A DNA stretch of 64,000 nt from the NCBI GenBank assembly GCA_963809485.1, contig CAWEJX010000017.1:32001-96000 (forward strand). Direction: 5' to 3'. A program made the translations under genes and the position numbers. Below the pieces are notes generated by a model, which was not told the origin of the DNA, did not search any database, and saw nothing but the letters and a program-made list of their open reading frames with translations. Numbering within the stretch: the first letter of the stretch is position 1; every line of letters starts with the position of its first letter. This DNA comes from an uncultured Acidobacteriota bacterium. Lineage in GTDB: Bacteria; Acidobacteriota; UBA6911. Shown here piece after piece: positions 51,140 to 61,396 of this stretch.

Positions 51140-52018
51140 ATGGTTATGCGCCAAGCACTTCTTAAGCTGTCCTGCGCTCTTTTCATTTGCGCTCTGCCGG
51201 CCGCAGGCCTTTCCGCACGGCAGGATACCCAAGCCCGACCCGGTGAGGAGGGCGCGTACAGCTCACGATTTTTCGATCAACTGCGCAACATTTTCGGAAG
51301 GTTCCGCGATTCGGATCTTCAGCGCGTGTTCAAGGAGGCACAGCCGATCCAATGCTCCGAACTCGTAGGACGCAAAGGGGAGTGGCGGCCCGTTGCATTT
51401 TTTAACGAAGACCGCAGACTGGGCGACTGGTGCCGGGAAAACCTGGAGGAGGTGAAATCCGACCTGGCGCTGTATACCTTCAAAGGCGTCTGCAACGGAG
51501 ACCGGGGAACGGTCCAGGTATCGACAGAATTTCCGACTGCTGCAAGCATCGAGGCCTACATGCAGCAGAAAATCCCGTGGGACCAGGTCGATGTGACGGT
51601 AAACGATCCTGTGAAGGCCGTATTGGATCCGAAAACCATGGCCTATACATTCGATCTGCCCTACCTGTTTCTGACTCAACGAACCCCCGTGAATGTCTAC
51701 AGTTTCAATGCACCCGATCGAGATTCAGCCTATGCTGCCGATGTGGCAAGCCGCTGGGAATGTAAGACTGTATCTTCCGGGGATGTGACATACCGCTTCC
51801 TGATTTGCCGCACGGCGACCGTGCCTCGAGGCCTTGCCGCCGGGAAGGGGAAGTGGGAACCGTCATTCGGATCGTCCGCATTTTTTATTTTGTCGGACGG
51901 CACAGAGGCAAAAACCAGCGTAAACCTGACATTTGGCGATGACCCCTCCCCAAGCGAAAAATCGGCGGATCCGCCTCCCACCTCCCCCAACCGGCCGGTC
52001 CTGAAAAGAGAGCAGTAG
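51140..52018 (+). CDS. Exported hypothetical protein
   Basis: Signal peptide; 292-aa ORF with no family I recognise. Confidence 0.7.
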   Translation: MVMRQALLKLSCALFICALPAAGLSARQDTQARPGEEGAYSSRFFDQLRNIFGRFRDSDLQRVFKEAQPIQCSELVGRKGEWRPVAFFNEDRRLGDWCRENLEEVKSDLALYTFKGVCNGDRGTVQVSTEFPTAASIEAYMQQKIPWDQVDVTVNDPVKAVLDPKTMAYTFDLPYLFLTQRTPVNVYSFNAPDRDSAYAADVASRWECKTVSSGDVTYRFLICRTATVPRGLAAGKGKWEPSFGSSAFFILSDGTEAKTSVNLTFGDDPSPSEKSADPPPTSPNRPVLKREQ

Positions 52019-52733: not shown

Positions 52734-54779
52734 TCAGGCACCCAATCTGGTCTTGCTTGCCATCGTGTCGGCGACTTTATTCAGGGACAATTCCTCCAGA
52801 GTTTTTCGGGTCGGCCATCCGGTATCGACATCCCATCCTTCCAGCTTGTAGAAATTGGTCTTGAACAGCTCGACTCCCGACTCATCCAGATACATGTCCA
52901 TCAACGGCTGCCAGCTCCATTTGCCGTTCTGGTAGACGGGCTCTCCGCCCGTGGGTGTTATCAGCGAAGCTCCCGGCATATGCATAAATGGAAAGAATTT
53001 TTCCTGATCCCGGTGCCTTCCCTGGAGCACACGGATCGCCCTCTCCAGGTTCCATATCTTCCTGCCGATCTCGATGGTATCCGCGAAACTGATTTTGTTT
53101 CCCGTCACGGCCTGATAATAGCGAATCTCCGAATCGGGAGTCGGGCCGCTGCAATCCGGGTTGGATGCGTTGATGAACAGAGGGAGGAGCATCTCGCAGA
53201 ACGCCATCGACTCGTTCCAGAATCCGGCGTAGCGACGGGACCAGGCCACCTGCTTGGCTTTATGCTCGGAATATATCCCGGTCTTCCTGGCATCTTCTCC
53301 CTGCCACGCATAGCTGAACATGAAAGGATCGCCTGTGTACGGGATCGTTTTGGCAGACATCAGTTCCAGGGCTTTTTCCAGGGTGTAGTTCTGTTTCGAC
53401 TCGCTCATGAGCCCGGCGTTCGGCCCGAGACTGAACCCGTGCCACACGACGTCACCGGCGCCCAGCAGAGACCCGTAAGCCCACTCGATGCCCGGAAGGG
53501 TCCAGTGGAAAACACTGCCCCAGGCCGGAAAGCGCAACGCACCCGAGTTCTTATCTTCGTCCAGTCTCCCCCATCTTTGAGCCGCTTCGAGGGCTCCTTC
53601 CGCGAGCGTATCCCCGATCCCGATGCGTTTGGCAACAACATTGCAGAAGTCCTCGCGGAAAATCAGGTCCGCCCACAGCTCCATGCGCAACGGGGAGGAG
53701 TCGATAGCTTTTCCCGGCCCCAGCACCCCCAGATCGTACAGATACTTTATGTACCAGCCCAGGCCGGGCGCATCCGGCACCTTTTTTTTGAACAGGGCGG
53801 GGGCTCCCGGGATGTCCAGCTGGAAAACACCTCCAAACTGGGCCCCCCACGTGCTCATCCCCCATTTGACGGCAATGTCCGCCGCCCTCATCGAATCCTT
53901 CACGTACCATTGGGCGTCCGCACACATCGATTCGCCGCCATAGAATGAGTTTCTTTTCCGGTCGTTGTTGAGGCAAGGCATGCATGAAGCGGTGCCGGCC
54001 TGAAGCGGGGCGGAACTCCTGCGGGCGTTTTGCATGTGCCAGAGCCTCGTATCCACAACAGCCTTAGGATCGGATGCCTGGATGCTGCCGGTCCCTGTGA
54101 CGCTGATTGCCTTCAGGTTTTTGGCGCCGAAAACCCCGCCATAGCCTCCGGTTCGGGCGGTGACGCCGCTGCCGTGAACCAGGATCCCCAGGTTCGAAAT
54201 CGCTTCGCCCACAGGTCCGATGCAGACGATCTGCGGCCGCGCCGTTGTGTAGCTCTCCCCGATCTGCTGCCATTCGTCGCCGAACCGGGTTCTGCCCGCC
54301 ACCATTGATGTGATCCTGTCTTGCGTTTCGTAGGTATTGAGCCCCCACAAGGACTTTGCATCCTCGATCGTGACCTTGTCGTTGATTATGTTGATCCAGA
54401 CCGGGCGGTCCGACTTGCCCTCCAGAACGATGCCGTCCCATCCGGCCAATTTCAGCATGGTGGCAAACCTGCCGCCGAAGTTCGCCCGATAGAAGCAGTG
54501 CGAGGGAAAAACCTCCGGGGATACGCCGCAGACGCTCGTTCTTCCGGCGCCCGGAACTCCCGTGGCCGCCAGCGGCCCGCTCATCAGGACAAGAACGCTT
54601 TGCGGATCATAGGCATTCTTCATATCCCAGCGGCCCGGTGCCACAGCCAGGTCCCAGAAGACAGCGGCGCCGATTCCAAAACCTCCGCCGAACTCTTCGT
54701 AAGCAGCAGTGTCGAGGGCGCCCGTCACCCTGGTGGTCAGATTCAGTCTCAAAATTTTACCGGCAAATCCGTTCGCCAT
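52734..54779 (-). CDS. Aldehyde:ferredoxin oxidoreductase family (W/Mo-pterin) protein 2
   Basis: 'GFAGKILRLNLT', 'FGGRFATMLKLAGWDGIVLEG', 'FGAKNLKAI', 'GWD..TGWPT..TLEEL'. Confidence 0.9.
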   Translation of the reverse strand: MANGFAGKILRLNLTTRVTGALDTAAYEEFGGGFGIGAAVFWDLAVAPGRWDMKNAYDPQSVLVLMSGPLAATGVPGAGRTSVCGVSPEVFPSHCFYRANFGGRFATMLKLAGWDGIVLEGKSDRPVWINIINDKVTIEDAKSLWGLNTYETQDRITSMVAGRTRFGDEWQQIGESYTTARPQIVCIGPVGEAISNLGILVHGSGVTARTGGYGGVFGAKNLKAISVTGTGSIQASDPKAVVDTRLWHMQNARRSSAPLQAGTASCMPCLNNDRKRNSFYGGESMCADAQWYVKDSMRAADIAVKWGMSTWGAQFGGVFQLDIPGAPALFKKKVPDAPGLGWYIKYLYDLGVLGPGKAIDSSPLRMELWADLIFREDFCNVVAKRIGIGDTLAEGALEAAQRWGRLDEDKNSGALRFPAWGSVFHWTLPGIEWAYGSLLGAGDVVWHGFSLGPNAGLMSESKQNYTLEKALELMSAKTIPYTGDPFMFSYAWQGEDARKTGIYSEHKAKQVAWSRRYAGFWNESMAFCEMLLPLFINASNPDCSGPTPDSEIRYYQAVTGNKISFADTIEIGRKIWNLERAIRVLQGRHRDQEKFFPFMHMPGASLITPTGGEPVYQNGKWSWQPLMDMYLDESGVELFKTNFYKLEGWDVDTGWPTRKTLEELSLNKVADTMASKTRLGA

Positions 54780-54810
54780 ATTTACCCCCGGGGGAAAAAT
54801 TCCATATCGC

Positions 54811-55093
54811 AGGTATCCTCCGGCAGAGCCGGAGGCTTTACGGTGCCAGGCCCCTCAAAGAGGCCTGATTGCATTTGACAAAAGATGAAAGAGGTTCCAT
54901 GCGCTATAGATGTTTTGGAACCGCAGAATGTCGAATAACGAATGATGAATCTCGAAGTGTGGCGCCAACTTCTGCGGTTCGATATTCGAAATTCGACATT
55001 CGATATTCCTCTTAGTTGCTGTCCGGACCTGGGAATATAAAAACCAGGGGTTGCCAAACTCGTACTGCCTCCCCGGCAGAGCCGGTGGATCTC
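54811..55093 (-). mobile_element. Non-autonomous IS200/IS605-like element
   Basis: Subterminal CCGGCTCTGCCGG hairpins in direct orientation at both ends, an extra hairpin AGGCCTCTTTGAGGGGCCT, no transposase; internal inverted heptamer arrays at 54919-55008. Confidence 0.55.
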
Positions 55094-55134
55094 GCAACAG
55101 ATCCGTAGGAGATTGCACAGCCTGTCCCCTCAAT

Positions 55135-57213
55135 TTAGCCCGGCTTGCCCTTGCTTTGCATGACATCGGCCACTCTCTTCAAGCCCATGTCCTCGAGCGT
55201 TTTTCTTGTCGGCCAGCCGTTGGCGGTGTTAAAGCCCTCGAAAGCATAGAACTTGGTCTTCCACTCCTCGAACCTGGCGCGATCCAGTTTCCGGCCCGAA
55301 CCGGTCTCGTAAGACCATTTTTGGGTCTTATCATCATACATGGGCAGGCGCTCTCCCCTGGAACCCTGCTCGTAGATATAATTCGGAAACACTTCCATAT
55401 CCCGGTGTCTGCCCTGTATCGTCCAGATCGCCCGGTCCAGGGTGAAGATCTTCCGCCCAATTTCCATACCGTCGGCGAATGTTATGTTCTTGCCGGTAAC
55501 GGCATTGAAAAATTTGGGCTCGGCCTCGGGCGTCGGCCCCTTGTAATCGGGGGTATTGTTGGTGAAGGACATGGGCCATCTCCAACCGCAAAAACCGTTG
55601 GAACCGATCCAGAACTTCTCGTAATGCTTGACCCAGGCGACCTGCTTGGCTTTATGTTCCGAGTAAATCCCGGTCGGCCCGTCGCTGTAATCAAGCATGA
55701 AGATGTCGCCTTCGTAGGGGATCATCGTATCTGCCGTCATCTGCGCTGCCTGCTCGGCCGTCAGGTACGGTTCTTTGCCCGCCATCCGGAAGGCTTCCGG
55801 CATCCAGTGGAGCGGATAATTGGCGATATTGTGCAGCATCAGATCCCTCTCGCCCATCAGCGAACCGAAGCCCCACTCGGACTCGACTCTGGGATCGTAA
55901 TGATCCGCGGTGCCCCAGTAAGCCAGATTCAGAGCGCCGCTGGCCAGATCTTCATCATAGATTCCCCATTTTTTCGCGGCTCTGGCAAGGCCCTCGGCCA
56001 GATCATTGCCGATTCCCTTACGGGTGCTGATCTGCCTCATGAGCATGTCCAAAAATCCCATCGTGCCGAACTGGTCCATGGGCAGATCGGTTTCGATCCG
56101 CTTTCCTTTGCCCAGGAGTCCCCTCTGGTAGAGGTTCTGCAAATAGCCCTGCATAGGCATAAAATGCCAATGGCCGAGGCCGTATTTCTGCATCAGATCG
56201 TTGCCCTGGCGGGTCAGCTTCAGGCTGGCGTTCTGAAGCCGGACGCCCGCGGTGCCGGCACAGACCGATTCATTGCTGTCCCCGCTGGCCAAACGCTGAC
56301 GACAGCCTCTGGGACAGGAAAAGCAGGACACTGCACGAGCAGGTACCAGCGGAATAGCATTCGCCCCGAAGTAGGGATTATTCGTTACGTTGGCACCGGC
56401 CGGGGAGCCGTTGATCCAGAAGAAGAATCCCCCTACCATGTCCTTCCTGCGTGGATCGTCCACGTCCCATAAAAACTGGCGGAACCAGGACCGGGCCTGC
56501 ATGAATGCCTTGGGATTTGCGATGGGAACGCTTCCCGTGCCGATGACGCTGATTGCCTTGAGATTTTTCGAACCAAAGACGCCTCCGAAACCTCCCAGCG
56601 CTGCTTGAGAACCGGGACCGTGCAGGAGGGCGCCCAGTCGGCTTTTGTTTTCGCCAGCCAGCCCGCAGCAGACCACGGCCGGAATCTGGGTCGTGGAGCT
56701 ATCGTCTACCTGAGCCCACTCGCCGTATTTCAGGTTGGGCATCACGCGCCGTGAGATTTCCTGCTGGGTATCCCACGTGTCCATCCCCCAAATCCCGTCG
56801 GCGCTTTCAATCTTGACCTTATCATTGACGATATTGATCCAGACGGGAGTGTCGGCCGCTCCTTCAACCACAATGCCGTCCCAGCCGGCATATTTCAACT
56901 GGGCCGTAAAGCGACCGCCGAAGTTGCTGTGGGCAAACCATTCAATGGGATACAGCATGGGCCCCAAACCCTGCACTTCGCACCGTCCGGAGCCCGGCAT
57001 GAAGGTGCCGGCAAATGGATGGGCCATCATGATGATGAGGTTCCGCGGATCGAATGCTTCAAACGGAAGCTGATCGCCGACCAGGTCGAAGAAAATGGCG
57101 GAGCCCATTCCATGGCCGCCGCCGAATTCCTCATACTTTTCCGTGGGAATGGTGCTGGTCGATTTGCCGGTCAGGTTCACCCTGAGAATCTTTCCCGTGT
57201 ATCCGCCCGTCAT
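55135..57213 (-). CDS. Aldehyde:ferredoxin oxidoreductase family (W/Mo-pterin) protein 1
   Basis: 'GYTGKILRVNLT', 'FGGRF..QLKYAGWDG', 'GSKNLKAI', 'CFSCPRGC'. Confidence 0.9.
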   Translation of the reverse strand: MTGGYTGKILRVNLTGKSTSTIPTEKYEEFGGGHGMGSAIFFDLVGDQLPFEAFDPRNLIIMMAHPFAGTFMPGSGRCEVQGLGPMLYPIEWFAHSNFGGRFTAQLKYAGWDGIVVEGAADTPVWINIVNDKVKIESADGIWGMDTWDTQQEISRRVMPNLKYGEWAQVDDSSTTQIPAVVCCGLAGENKSRLGALLHGPGSQAALGGFGGVFGSKNLKAISVIGTGSVPIANPKAFMQARSWFRQFLWDVDDPRRKDMVGGFFFWINGSPAGANVTNNPYFGANAIPLVPARAVSCFSCPRGCRQRLASGDSNESVCAGTAGVRLQNASLKLTRQGNDLMQKYGLGHWHFMPMQGYLQNLYQRGLLGKGKRIETDLPMDQFGTMGFLDMLMRQISTRKGIGNDLAEGLARAAKKWGIYDEDLASGALNLAYWGTADHYDPRVESEWGFGSLMGERDLMLHNIANYPLHWMPEAFRMAGKEPYLTAEQAAQMTADTMIPYEGDIFMLDYSDGPTGIYSEHKAKQVAWVKHYEKFWIGSNGFCGWRWPMSFTNNTPDYKGPTPEAEPKFFNAVTGKNITFADGMEIGRKIFTLDRAIWTIQGRHRDMEVFPNYIYEQGSRGERLPMYDDKTQKWSYETGSGRKLDRARFEEWKTKFYAFEGFNTANGWPTRKTLEDMGLKRVADVMQSKGKPG

Positions 57214-58043
57214 TACCGCACCTCCTGTTCCCTGGAGTCGGATTTCGGTTCCGGCTCATACGTAATCGGCTTCTGTTTCGCCTGAAGCGCGACTGCGGGC
57301 GGGACCGTGGTGCTGTTTTCCACCAGGCCCAGGTTCAGCCAGTGCTCATTCCTCAGGTTCACATCGTACCCCTCGGTCTCTGTCTGGACGGGAGTGGTTG
57401 AGACAAACCTGATAGCCTTCATCGGGCAGTTTTCCATGCAGGCCTGTTTGCCGCCGGGGCCGCCCTTCTCTTCCCAATACGGGGTGTCCAGACACAGATC
57501 GCATTTGGAGGATTTCTTTTCGATGTGGTTCCAGACCGTCCGGTGAGGCTGCTGGGGACACATTTTGATGCAGGTCTTGCAGCCGATGCACTTCTTACTG
57601 TCGATCCGCCGGACGTTGCCGTTTTCCGTATCCACAAAAGCGGCGCCGGTGGGGCAGTTCTGAACGCAAACCGGGGTCACACACTGCCGGCAGGGAGCCA
57701 TTTTGACATCATCAGGGAATTTGCCGAAGGAGTCCTGAATGATCTGGATGCGCGAAAGCGACAGGTTCTGCACTCCATAATGGACCAGCGAACAACTCAA
57801 CATGCAGGTAGCGCAGCCCGCGCATTTCTTGCTGTCATAAACCAGGTAACCTGTGGATTGGGGATAGGTAACCTTTTCGGCGGGTGGCGGTGATGCGCTT
57901 TCGGCAACGGCTGCTCCCGCCGGAGTTGCTGCTATCAATGCGTCTACGGCAACAACCGTTCCACCGGTGACCAGAAAATCTCTTCTTGATAACCTCCTTT
58001 TGGCGGCAGTTTCCTCAGTTTCAGCCTTTTTGGCTCCAGCCAT
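57213..58043 (-). CDS. Tat-exported 4x[4Fe-4S] subunit (DmsB/YdhY-like)
   Basis: GGAG RBS; 'LSRRDFL' Tat signal; CAGCATC..SC, CRQCVTPVCVQNCP, CIGCKTCIKMCP, KCDLC...CMENCP. Confidence 0.9.
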   Translation of the reverse strand: MAGAKKAETEETAAKRRLSRRDFLVTGGTVVAVDALIAATPAGAAVAESASPPPAEKVTYPQSTGYLVYDSKKCAGCATCMLSCSLVHYGVQNLSLSRIQIIQDSFGKFPDDVKMAPCRQCVTPVCVQNCPTGAAFVDTENGNVRRIDSKKCIGCKTCIKMCPQQPHRTVWNHIEKKSSKCDLCLDTPYWEEKGGPGGKQACMENCPMKAIRFVSTTPVQTETEGYDVNLRNEHWLNLGLVENSTTVPPAVALQAKQKPITYEPEPKSDSREQEVR

Positions 58044-58358
58044 ACGGCAACTCCTTCCCGGGGTATGGGTTTTGATACGCCTATTCACCGTGAATTCTAA
58101 CCCAGGTCGGGCAATGTAGCTCCTGAAATTTGCGTATCAAGAGGATAAAGTACAGCGTCCCTGGTTTCCGCACCGGGATCAAAGGATCCGTCTATGGAAA
58201 TCAATATCATTAACCGGGGACACTCATGATATAAACTAAGTTTGGCATCAGGCCATCTGGTCTTATTGGACAAATAAGATCAGGAAGTTGTCGCACGGCT
58301 GCACCCCATCGTAGCCAGTGGGAGACCGCAGCAGGGATTACCTTATGAGGAGATAGAA

Positions 58359-60122
58359 ATGAAACGAAAGACGCTATCTTTTTATTGCCTTTTGGCGGCT
58401 GCAATCCTGATCCTTTGCGGGATCGCGCCGGTGCAGGCTCAGCGTAATGCCGCTGCCTCCAAGGGCGATTTAATTACTGTTCTGAATCCGGCCGTCACAG
58501 ACAAACTCGCGGAGCGGGTGCCCCTGGCGCCCCGGCTCAACACCCTGGAAGGCAAAACCATCTACATTGTGGATACAAACTACGAAGGATTCGGGCGGCT
58601 CCCCGTGCTCGAGGAGATGCAGGCTTGGTTTACCAGAAACATGCCGAACGTAAAGACCGTCCTCAAGCTCAAGAGCGGCAGTTACGTCGCCGATGATCCT
58701 GCATTGTGGAAGGAGATTGCTTCCAACGGCGGCAACGGCGTAATCATCGGCGTGGCCGGTTGATGGGGCTGCCTCGCGGCCGTGAGCCGCTTTTCAGGAG
58801 CTTTAGAAACACAGTATGGGATCCCTACCATATCGCTTGCGAATGAAAACATCGTGTCCTACGGACTGAATGCCCATTTTAAATACAATACCGGCATGCC
58901 CATCCGTTACGTCGGGATGCCGTATCCATTCACGGGCCTTAAACAGGATATGCTTAAAGCCTACCTCGAAGGCAAGGACAGGGTCAGCGGCAAGCCCATC
59001 ATGCAGGCTATCGTCGACGGTTTGACAAAACCTCTGACCGCCGAGGAAAAAAGGGCCGGAGCCCCTCCCGACGCGGCACCCGAGCCCAGATTCCTGCCCC
59101 CGGACACGGAAGACAATCTGCAGCGGCTGTTCAAGGACAAAGGCTGGACCGACTACAACCCGGTCCTGCTCCCGACAGCGGAAAGAGTGGCCGCCATGCT
59201 GAAAGGCACCAGCCACAAGCCGGATGAGCTGATTAAGAAAGACTCCGGCGTCTTCGGCACGATCCGTCCGTTCACGGTGGAAAAGATTGCCATCGTTGCC
59301 GTCATGGCGGGCGCCAAACCCGAATATCTGCCGGTGATCCTGGCGCTGGCCAGTCAGGTCCCGTATGCGGATTCCACCACCTCCAACGCCAGCATGGTGC
59401 TGATCAACGGACCGATACGCAAGCAGATCGGGATGAATTCGGGCGAGGGCGTACTGGGCCCGAACGCCGAGGCCAATTCCGTAATCGGCCGGGCCATGAA
59501 CCTGATACACAAAACAATCCAGGGCTACCAGGAGGGTGTGACCGGCTTCACCTCCCTCAGCAACCCTCTGCGCTACGGCAATGTGACCCTTGCGGAGGCC
59601 GAGGAAGAGCTTCCGGAAGGATGGAAGCCTGTTCACGTACTGAATGGCCACAAGCCCGAAGACAGCGTCCTCACTTTGTTCATGGGCTGGAACTTCGTGA
59701 ACTGCTCGGGTTCGGTCGTGGAGCATTATGCCCCGCAGCTTTTGATGCGCGACTTTACCCGGGTGCTGGCGGCCACTGGAGCGGCAACACTCATCATGGA
59801 TCCGTCCGTCGCCTATCAGCTCAAAAACACACAGGGCTTCCAAACCAAGGCGGCGCTTGCCGAGTGGCTATCTAAGAACGCGGAAGTGCCCGCGGCAACC
59901 TATTGGGCCAATTCCATCGCTTCCGGCATGATGGCGCCCCTCGGCAAACAGGGTCTCGAGCCCTATGCAGGCTGGCTAAAAGTCCCGGGCGACGCGCTGA
60001 TCAAACACCTCCCGAATCCGCAGAACATTAAAACAATCGTGGCAGGGGGGAAAACAGCGAGCGTCTGGTTCATAGCCGATTTCATGGCCGGCAGAGGCGT
60101 ATCCATCGATGCCTGGAGGTAA
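58359..60122 (+). CDS. Exported UGSC-family selenoprotein (587 aa; Sec135 in U-W-G-C), fused to a C-terminal domain
   Basis: ORFs 58359-58763 and 58782-60122 share a frame separated only by TGA 58761-58763; readthrough gives 'IIGVAG-U-WGC-LAAVSR'; 'LAPRLNTLEGKTI' N-domain; 'GWTD..P...PT.ERV..ML' C-domain. Confidence 0.85.
58761..58796 (+). promoter_or_regulatory. Putative bacterial SECIS hairpin
   Basis: Upper stem CTCGC/GTGAG with a GGCC loop; lower stem TGA(T)GGGGC/GCTTTTCA directly at the TGA. Folded by eye only. Confidence 0.6.
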
Positions 60123-60562: not shown

Positions 60563-61396
60563 ATGGGAATAACGGACAGTCTGATCCTGTCTTCAGCCAT
60601 TTTGTTTCTTACCTTTGGTGCAGCTCAATCTGACAATGCATTTGCCGGGGAAAGAGATCTCAAGCCCGAGGAAGTAGTCGCCGCTCATCTCAAATCTATT
60701 GGCAATCCCAGGATTCTGCAGTCAATCAAATCGCGCGCGATTGAAGGTTCCGCATCGGTTAAGTTCATTCAGGGTAAATTCCGGGATTCCCCTGATGGCG
60801 AGTCCTTGATGATTTCCGAAGGACGCAAACTGGGAATCATAATGAAGTTTAAAACCCTGGGATATTATGGGGAATATCTCGCGTTCGATGGAAATGGTGT
60901 AACGATCGGGAACTGCGATGACTTAACCAGGTCCCGATTTGGCCATTTTTTCAGCCAGGTTGATGGCGTAATGAAGGAAGGGCTCCTGGGGGGCACACTG
61001 TCGGTCGCCTGGCCTCTTCTGGATGTTCCGGGAAGGCAGCCGAAACTCAAATACCAGAAGAGAAAGATTGAGGGCCGGCAACTGCACGAGCTCATCTATA
61101 ATCCCAAATCCATCTGGGGGACGGAATTTCTGCGGATCCGGCTGTTTTTTGAGCCTGAATCCTTTCGTCATGTGATGACGGAATATAAGTTCTGGAGAGG
61201 CGATACACCGGACTCAGTGGTGCTAAAGGAAATTTTTGAAGACTTCCGGGAAGTGGATGGCCTTATGCTCCCTCACAGATACAGAATTCATTTTTCCAGT
61301 ACCAACTTCATCGGTCATTGGACCATTGAAGCGCGGCATTGGCGGCATAATGCCCCCATGGATGCCGAGCTTTTCAAGGCGAGGTCATTGAGGTGA
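60563..61396 (+). CDS. Exported hypothetical protein (possible LolA-like fold)
   Basis: GGAGG RBS, signal peptide, 'HLKSIG', 'FEDFREVDGLMLPH'. Confidence 0.7.
   Translation: MGITDSLILSSAILFLTFGAAQSDNAFAGERDLKPEEVVAAHLKSIGNPRILQSIKSRAIEGSASVKFIQGKFRDSPDGESLMISEGRKLGIIMKFKTLGYYGEYLAFDGNGVTIGNCDDLTRSRFGHFFSQVDGVMKEGLLGGTLSVAWPLLDVPGRQPKLKYQKRKIEGRQLHELIYNPKSIWGTEFLRIRLFFEPESFRHVMTEYKFWRGDTPDSVVLKEIFEDFREVDGLMLPHRYRIHFSSTNFIGHWTIEARHWRHNAPMDAELFKARSLR

Follow-up and report, generated by a model that had tools for sequence, protein, structure and literature searches.

The window analysed here is a 64,000-nucleotide stretch of contig CAWEJX010000017.1 (positions 32,001 to 96,000) from an uncultured Acidobacteriota bacterium of soil or wetland. 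The locus under study within it encodes an iron-sulfur (Fe-S) protein with an export signal of the twin-arginine translocation (Tat) type, two paralogues of the aldehyde ferredoxin oxidoreductase (AOR) family, designated AOR1 and AOR2, and a selenoprotein of the UGSC family. The listing of open reading frames (ORFs) confirmed the four genes that an earlier note on this DNA had proposed, three on the minus strand and the selenoprotein gene divergent on the plus strand, and domain and motif searches bore out the same set. The features of the locus are as follows.

52734..54779, minus strand: AOR2, 681 amino acids (aa), member of the B-type clade, with AFOR_N and AFOR_C domains and no signal peptide
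54780..55134, no strand: spacer between AOR1 and AOR2, 355 bp, mostly a dispersed repeat resembling a miniature inverted-repeat transposable element (MITE), recognised from blastn, inverted repeats and contig depth
55135..57213, minus strand: AOR1, 692 aa, member of the A-type clade, with AFOR_N and AFOR_C domains and no signal peptide
57213..58043, minus strand: Fe-S subunit, 276 aa from its ATG, with 16 cysteines for four [4Fe-4S] clusters; an alternative GTG start lies at 58088
57906..58043, minus strand: part of the Fe-S gene that encodes the Tat signal, with SRRDFL, a hydrophobic stretch and A-V-A
58044..58358, no strand: divergent intergenic region with a promoter-like match and the ribosome-binding site of the selenoprotein gene
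58359..60122, plus strand: exported UGSC selenoprotein of 587 aa, made up of a Sec-type signal peptide and two domains (ORFs 58359..58763 and 58782..60122 in one frame)
58761..58763, plus strand: UGA as selenocysteine, U135 in G-U-W-G-C
58776..58790, plus strand: hairpin GCGGC-CGUGA-GCCGC resembling a selenocysteine insertion sequence (SECIS)

The translated Fe-S protein carries SRRDFL followed by a hydrophobic stretch ending in A-V-A, and its 16 cysteines fall into four cluster motifs. It matches 4Fe-4S dicluster (Fer4) families, and the models for NrfC-, DmsB- and HybA-type subunits stay below their cut-offs. Its TAA stop codon overlaps the ATG of AOR1 by one nucleotide (TAATG), with GGAGG upstream, consistent with the translational coupling suggested in the earlier note. 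The twin-arginine motif and hydrophobic stretch are present in 49 of 52 homologous Fe-S genes from related loci, the other three being cut or masked at the N terminus. Among A-type loci below 76% identity for which at least 900 bp of upstream sequence could be inspected, 45 of 51 have an Fe-S gene immediately upstream of the AOR gene. The genome also encodes TatC. Both AOR1 and AOR2 begin directly with the AFOR_N domain, with profile position 1 at residue 7, and therefore have no signal peptide, as had been noted. Taken together, the conserved twin-arginine motif and the presence of TatC argue well for the proposal that the catalytic subunit is exported by hitch-hiking on its Tat partner. This idea is not new, since it corresponds to the concept of Class V tungsten-containing oxidoreductases (WORs) set out in PMC13328260. 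No membrane protein, cytochrome b, NrfD or CxxCH protein was found among the neighbours in the window or at 10 paralogous loci, and the module is a minimal, anchor-less form of two or three proteins. Two Fe-S subunit paralogues without an adjacent AOR gene (55-58% identity) were also observed in this genome, at C4:199458-200135 and C10:33830-34510 (contig and positions), and could serve orphan AORs in trans.

Both AORs exceed the Pfam cut-offs for AFOR_N and AFOR_C (164.9 and 124.6 bits for AOR1, 158.2 and 72.8 bits for AOR2). The cluster site of AOR1 reads C297-x2-C300-x3-C304 ... C542. AOR2 and its four closest paralogues (C20:909006-911048, C6:322123-324162, C4:296609-298636 and C7:651646-653739) carry C-x2-C-x3-D ... 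C instead, which suggests that this B-type subgroup may hold an Asp-ligated or 3Fe cluster. The motifs DxxGLD and DxxGLC, which we take from the Pyrococcus furiosus AOR literature to be pterin-associated, are replaced by QKYGLG and GSNGFC in AOR1 and by VKWGMS and ESMAFC in AOR2, exactly as quoted in the earlier note. Escherichia coli YdhV reads DDYGLW (partly divergent) and NAVTLC (divergent) at the same motifs, and because YdhV departs from them as well, the altered motifs are a trait of the wider YdhV-like branch rather than of this locus.

At the metal site, E315 and C318 of AOR1 are invariant in a 20-sequence alignment (A2). C318 aligns with BamB Cys322 in a profile alignment to 4z3w and with YdhV Cys336 in a MAFFT alignment, and a cysteine occupies the YdhV Cys336 position in all 12 paralogues of the clade described below, in AOR2 as the Cys of E-S-M-C. 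According to PMC12096430, the BamB and YdhV cysteines are metal ligands and both proteins are without the second-shell residues of true AORs. Considering Thr243, Glu313, Tyr427 and His448 as these residues, a phmmer alignment to 1aor places AOR1 E315 on Glu313 and Y439 on Tyr427, the profile alignment is shifted by two residues, and the positions of Thr243 and His448 could not be placed in AOR1. With an AOR-like Glu beside a BamB/YdhV-like Cys, the clade therefore looks like a hybrid of the two types, a view that the two-residue shift keeps tentative. The cysteine aligned with the BamB/YdhV metal ligand suggests a chemistry other than ordinary aldehyde oxidation. The unusual substrate envisaged in the earlier note fits the Cys-type metal site (PMC12096430); the altered pterin motifs are common to the YdhV-like branch.

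Of the 25 AFOR_N matches listed for the genome, 24 exceed the cut-off, and twelve of these form one clade, with an A-type branch of AOR1 and four others and a B-type branch of AOR2 and six others. Placement of this clade was assessed with a quick, midpoint-rooted maximum-likelihood tree of 30 rows, in which 23 AOR genes of the genome were combined with E. coli YdhV and six homologues from databases. The 18 A/B rows form a single clade (Shimodaira-Hasegawa-like approximate likelihood ratio test, SH-aLRT, 100; stem length 1.15) and sister (SH-aLRT 89) to a group of YdhV and the genome's own YdhV-like gene, C12:296747-298903, so that in this tree the AORs of the locus belong to a separate YdhV-sister clade and do not fall inside the YdhV pair. 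The YdhV-like gene itself pairs with E. coli YdhV (SH-aLRT 100) and is adjoined by an Fe-S gene at C12:298953-299507. AOR1 and E. coli YdhV align over their full length at 25% identity, and a good alignment with solved AORs is confined to the N-terminal domain. PRK09849 (YdhV) is the best NCBIfam match for both proteins, which stay far below its threshold (248.7 bits for AOR1 and 219.7 for AOR2, cut-off 868).

The published system nearest to the locus is Class V of the WORs, which is limited to clade 41 and includes YdhV with YdhY/YdhX and CsWOR41 of Cetobacterium somerae. As described in PMC13328260, the large subunit is adjoined by a small Fe-S subunit that has a Tat signal, a transmembrane domain or both, one or more additional subunits are always present, and no Class V enzyme is reported there as purified from its native host or as having an assigned activity or role. 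The locus resembles Class V in that a signal-less large pterin subunit adjoins a Tat-type 4x[4Fe-4S] small subunit, in the cysteine at the YdhV Cys336 position, and in having YdhV as its nearest characterised relative. It differs in that AOR1 is only 25% identical to YdhV and belongs to a separate, long-branched sister clade in the quick tree, in that 12 paralogues occur in one genome together with a linked selenoprotein, and in that no third subunit, membrane anchor or cytochrome lies beside it, nor was any further subunit or membrane association found at the 10 paralogous loci examined. No Acidobacteriota occur in three supplement files of PMC13328260, including its clade-41 genome table, a statement that does not extend to the large member table (Table_1.xlsx).

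Two other members of the family invite comparison. BamB shares the AOR-family fold, a cysteine ligand to the metal (Cys322, aligned with AOR1 C318) and an Fe-S partner subunit, but it belongs to a large electron-bifurcating complex in the cytoplasm, its profile match outside the N-terminal domain is weak (19.3 and 11.9 bits), and, according to PMC12096430, it is without the Glu that AOR1 appears to keep at the position of P. furiosus AOR (PfAOR) Glu313. AORs in the strict sense (P. furiosus 1aor; AorAB 8c0z) have the same AFOR_N and AFOR_C domains, the C-x2-C-x3-C ... C site found in AOR1, and, in the phmmer alignment, Glu313 and Tyr427 as tentative counterparts of E315 and Y439. In contrast with these enzymes, AOR1 has an extra cysteine beside the active-site Glu and both DxxGL(D/C) motifs changed, the C-terminal domains are barely alignable, and the AORs of the locus are predicted to be periplasmic.

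The arrangement of one Fe-S gene with two AOR genes is interrupted by the spacer at 54780-55134, for which blastn against the genome listed at least 100 matches, several of them 180-300 bp long at 85-93% identity, with copies on contigs C6, C7, C8, C9 and C20. The spacer also contains internal inverted repeats, and metagenome contig depth over the repeat is approximately tenfold higher. The joints of metagenome contigs in this area most likely stem from further copies of the repeat, and AOR1 and AOR2 probably lay much closer together before it inserted. The promoter and terminator scan found no minus-strand terminator in the spacer. A remnant Fe-S gene was also considered for this interval and rejected, as tblastn gave no match there. 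The pattern of one Fe-S gene and two AOR genes recurs elsewhere in the genome, as Fe-S-B-B' at C20:128827-134249 and as an A gene divergent from an Fe-S-A pair at C20:316760-322080, and in relatives L019, L020 and L054. We further modelled the complex of the mature Fe-S protein with AOR2, which gave an ipSAE of 0.82 against 0.00 for the best of three controls, with a mark that is reached by 116 of 157 solved complexes and by 2 of 215 mismatched pairs. The runs share at least 60% of their contacts, the partner has a predicted local distance difference test (pLDDT) score of at least 84, and AOR2 residues 265-275, around its cluster motif, belong to the predicted interface. Because like complexes have been solved (8c0z, 6x6u and 4z3w) and the pass may reflect memory of them, we read this model as evidence of likeness and not of binding.

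The selenoprotein frame spans 587 codons, is open through a single TGA, starts MKRKTLSFYCLLAAAILILCGIAPVQAQ and encodes a Sec-type signal peptide. Residues 41-201 match the UGSC domain PF24696 (39.3 bits, cut-off 25), with the motif G-U135-W-G-C138, while the NCBIfam equivalog NF041046 is not reached (21.3 versus 125) and the C-terminal ~380 residues have no Pfam or NCBIfam match. All 14 orthologues that adjoin AOR genes keep the TGA and have U-x-x-C. A hairpin of 5 bp, located 16-30 nt downstream of the UGA, is also conserved, and one of its five pairs is compensatory (GC in 5, UA in 4, GU in 3 and UU in 2). Since the single-sequence fold of this region is no better than shuffles (z 0.83), it is the comparative hairpin that carries the argument for a SECIS. 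The genome has the corresponding machinery, with a tRNA-Sec on C19 and SelB at 391.3 bits (cut-off 242). The conservation, the hairpin, the tRNA-Sec and SelB together lead us to read the UGA as a real selenocysteine codon.

The structure model of the selenoprotein is confident (pLDDT 86.4; predicted template modelling score, pTM, 0.85) and gives the N-terminal domain (residues ~62-231) a generic flavodoxin/CheY-like fold, with Z up to 10.3 (VIA-align). Foldseek against the PDB returned no convincing match to the C-terminal domain, which was barely covered (best TM ~0.15-0.19), and a protein atlas queried with a homologue returned only UGSC clusters. UGSC (PF24696, NF041046) has been described as a major family of environmental selenoproteins (Zhang and Gladyshev 2008, PMC2398784) and is counted among the selenoproteins with largely uncharacterised functions (PMC13188914). 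The window protein resembles that family in its U-x-x-C and its UGSC domain above the Pfam cut-off, and its fusion to an unnamed domain is of the kind noted in PMC2398784 ('UGSC/Unknown_1'). It differs in its form, which is exported, 587 aa long and composed of two domains, and in its link to an AOR-family enzyme. In the genome as a whole we found 58 matches to the UGSC domain, of which 40 have a single in-frame TGA and the majority are ~600 aa long; this set constitutes a very large single-family selenoproteome.

To the selenoprotein side, the gap from the Fe-S gene is 315 bp, as reported in the earlier note, when counted from the homologue-backed ATG at 58043, and 270 bp from the GTG at 58088. 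This region (58044..58358) holds one sigma-70-like match, on the minus strand at 58140-58113, in a scan whose overall matches were at or below shuffle levels, together with the GAGGAG ribosome-binding site of the selenoprotein gene. Metagenome contigs cross the Fe-S/UGSC divergent junction (two, 57559-58573 and 57565-58240) and the Fe-S/AOR1 junction (two); they are short, and none covers the whole locus.

We asked how often AOR and UGSC genes are neighbours in a comparative set of 77 related loci from metagenome-assembled genomes (MAGs) labelled Acidobacteriota and Desulfobacterota. A UGSC gene at least 45% identical to that of the window lies within 5 kb of the AOR gene in 15 of the 77; 10 of these are among the 21 loci whose AOR is at least 76% identical to AOR1, and 5 are among the 56 more distant ones. 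At least four gene orders occur: UGSC followed by A, Fe-S-A-UGSC, convergent A and UGSC genes, and a divergent arrangement like that of the locus studied here; in six loci with UGSC before A, the two genes lie on the same strand with a gap of 20-27 bp. The adjacent UGSC proteins in relatives are 48-88% identical to the window's, and we regard them as its orthologues because most paralogues within the genome are only 25-53% identical. All of them have hydrophobic or lipoprotein-type N termini. Within the genome, three of nine A/B loci have a UGSC gene no more than 1.5 kb away, compared to a mean of 0.58 under random placement (P ~0.016), and other distance thresholds give P values of 0.035-0.07. 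In the literature collection searched, no paper contains both 'UGSC' and 'aldehyde ferredoxin oxidoreductase'.

Two flanking genes, at 51140-52018 and 60563-61396, encode N-terminal signal-like sequences and have no family match. As candidate parts of the system these exported proteins were rejected, since relatives do not conserve them along with the locus.

Based on the data presented above, we favour, with moderate confidence, the reading that the locus encodes a minimal, anchor-less, Tat-exported tungsten or molybdenum bis-pterin oxidoreductase of a YdhV-sister lineage, with the UGSC selenoprotein in the same extracytoplasmic pathway. The 4x[4Fe-4S] subunit would be folded and loaded in the cytoplasm, where its sequence features suggest that it would bind the signal-less AOR1 and carry it across the membrane on the twin-arginine signal. 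AOR2, which has no Fe-S gene of its own here, would most likely use the same Fe-S subunit or a paralogous one. The Sec-exported selenoprotein, with its U-x-x-C, probably acts in the same pathway, given that its genomic association with the AOR1 orthologue group is conserved. The function of the locus and any direct coupling between the Fe-S subunit and the selenoprotein are inferences.

Several observations weigh against this reading. The repeat insertion separates AOR2 from AOR1, which weakens the case for their co-transcription, and in relatives L067-L069 the order is Fe-S-A-Fe-S-B, with an Fe-S gene for each AOR; the notion of exchangeable catalytic subunits in the earlier note is thus favoured by the recurrence of one Fe-S gene with two AOR genes and by the AOR2 model, and opposed by these three relatives. 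When the 58 UGSC matches of the genome were merged into 59 loci, only three lay near this AOR clade. Of the 18 closest AOR1 loci, defined by 76% identity or more and by the presence of upstream sequence, 16 have no adjacent Tat Fe-S gene; in these Fe-S-less loci the AOR stands alone in unrelated contexts, and the UGSC proteins still have signal peptides. In such relatives the AOR may be cytoplasmic and its UGSC neighbour exported, placing the two in different compartments, and a shared pathway therefore fits better than a fixed physical complex. The closest AOR1 orthologue, L002:10001-12079 (88% identity), comes from an Acidobacteriota chromosome that is complete; a stop codon breaks its frame at codon 104, and it sits by itself amid genes for histidine kinases; this copy is either a pseudogene or an assembly error. 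Finally, in a phylum sample of 301 genomes, four have both the AOR clade and UGSC, one the AOR clade only, 25 UGSC only and 271 neither, and all four double-positive genomes belong to one genus, so that co-occurrence at this level is confounded and provides no independent support. Of the link to the selenoprotein that the earlier note had raised, the local association in 15 of 77 loci is retained, whereas direct coupling sits poorly with the 16 close loci that have no Tat Fe-S gene and the genome-level table rests on a single genus.

Given these points, it is conceivable, if rather unlikely, that the Fe-S/AOR module is exported and the selenoprotein gene is a mere neighbour, brought there by the density of UGSC genes or by shared regulation. 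The 58 UGSC matches in 59 loci, the modest enrichment within the genome (P from 0.016 to 0.07 depending on the distance threshold), the heterogeneous neighbourhoods of the other AOR loci and the lack of conservation of the flanking exported proteins would all be expected in that case, but chance proximity does not readily account for neighbours that are orthologues (48-88% identity, compared to mostly 25-53% for paralogues), or for adjacency in both Acidobacteriota- and Desulfobacterota-labelled MAGs, in several gene orders and with 20-27 bp gaps in six loci. It is improbable that AOR1 and AOR2 are instead cytoplasmic, like Class I/II WORs, with the Fe-S protein exported alone or its signal unused when cargo is bound. 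The unrelated contexts of the 16 of 18 close orthologues without an adjacent Fe-S gene, and the cytoplasmic location of most characterised AORs (PMC13328260), are in keeping with this explanation; the one-base overlap of the Fe-S and AOR1 genes, the Tat motif in 49 of 52 Fe-S partners and the upstream Fe-S gene in 45 of 51 more distant A-type loci speak against it, and an exported poly-ferredoxin without an exported catalytic partner would have no evident role.

The replacement of the canonical pterin-binding aspartates, by QKYGLG/GSNGFC in AOR1 and VKWGMS/ESMAFC in AOR2, might alternatively mean that the AORs are pterin-free or inactive paralogues, which we consider very improbable. AOR1 R77 and N97 align with PfAOR Arg76 and Asn93, and identities of 63-88% among at least 120 listed homologues indicate strong purifying conservation. 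Moreover, YdhV is also off the second motif (NAVTLC) yet is reported to carry a bis-Mo-MPT cofactor (Reschke 2019, as cited in PMC13328260 and PMC12096430). Returning to the reading of an exported oxidoreductase with the selenoprotein in its pathway, a more specific version of it, which is speculative and on present evidence unlikely, would make the exported AOR/Fe-S module a periplasmic electron system devoted to the UGSC selenoprotein. In this version a low-potential donor would be oxidised by the pterin enzyme on the outer side of the cytoplasmic membrane, electrons would flow through the four-cluster subunit to a selenenyl-sulfide of the U-x-x-C motif, and the selenoprotein would perform a GrdB-like reductive cleavage. 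If true, this would amount to a Stickland-like couple outside the cytoplasmic membrane, and would assign a Class V-like WOR its first physiological role and the UGSC family its first redox partner.

What appears to be new here is a YdhV-sister, Cys-type, anchor-less clade with multiple paralogues, the apparent use of one Fe-S gene for two catalytic genes, and the link to UGSC. Linkage of this AOR clade to one UGSC orthologue group gives each family a concrete partner to test. The tentative combination of an AOR-like Glu with a BamB/YdhV-like Cys, and the C-x2-C-x3-D subgroup, may in turn be of interest for tungsten and molybdenum enzymology.

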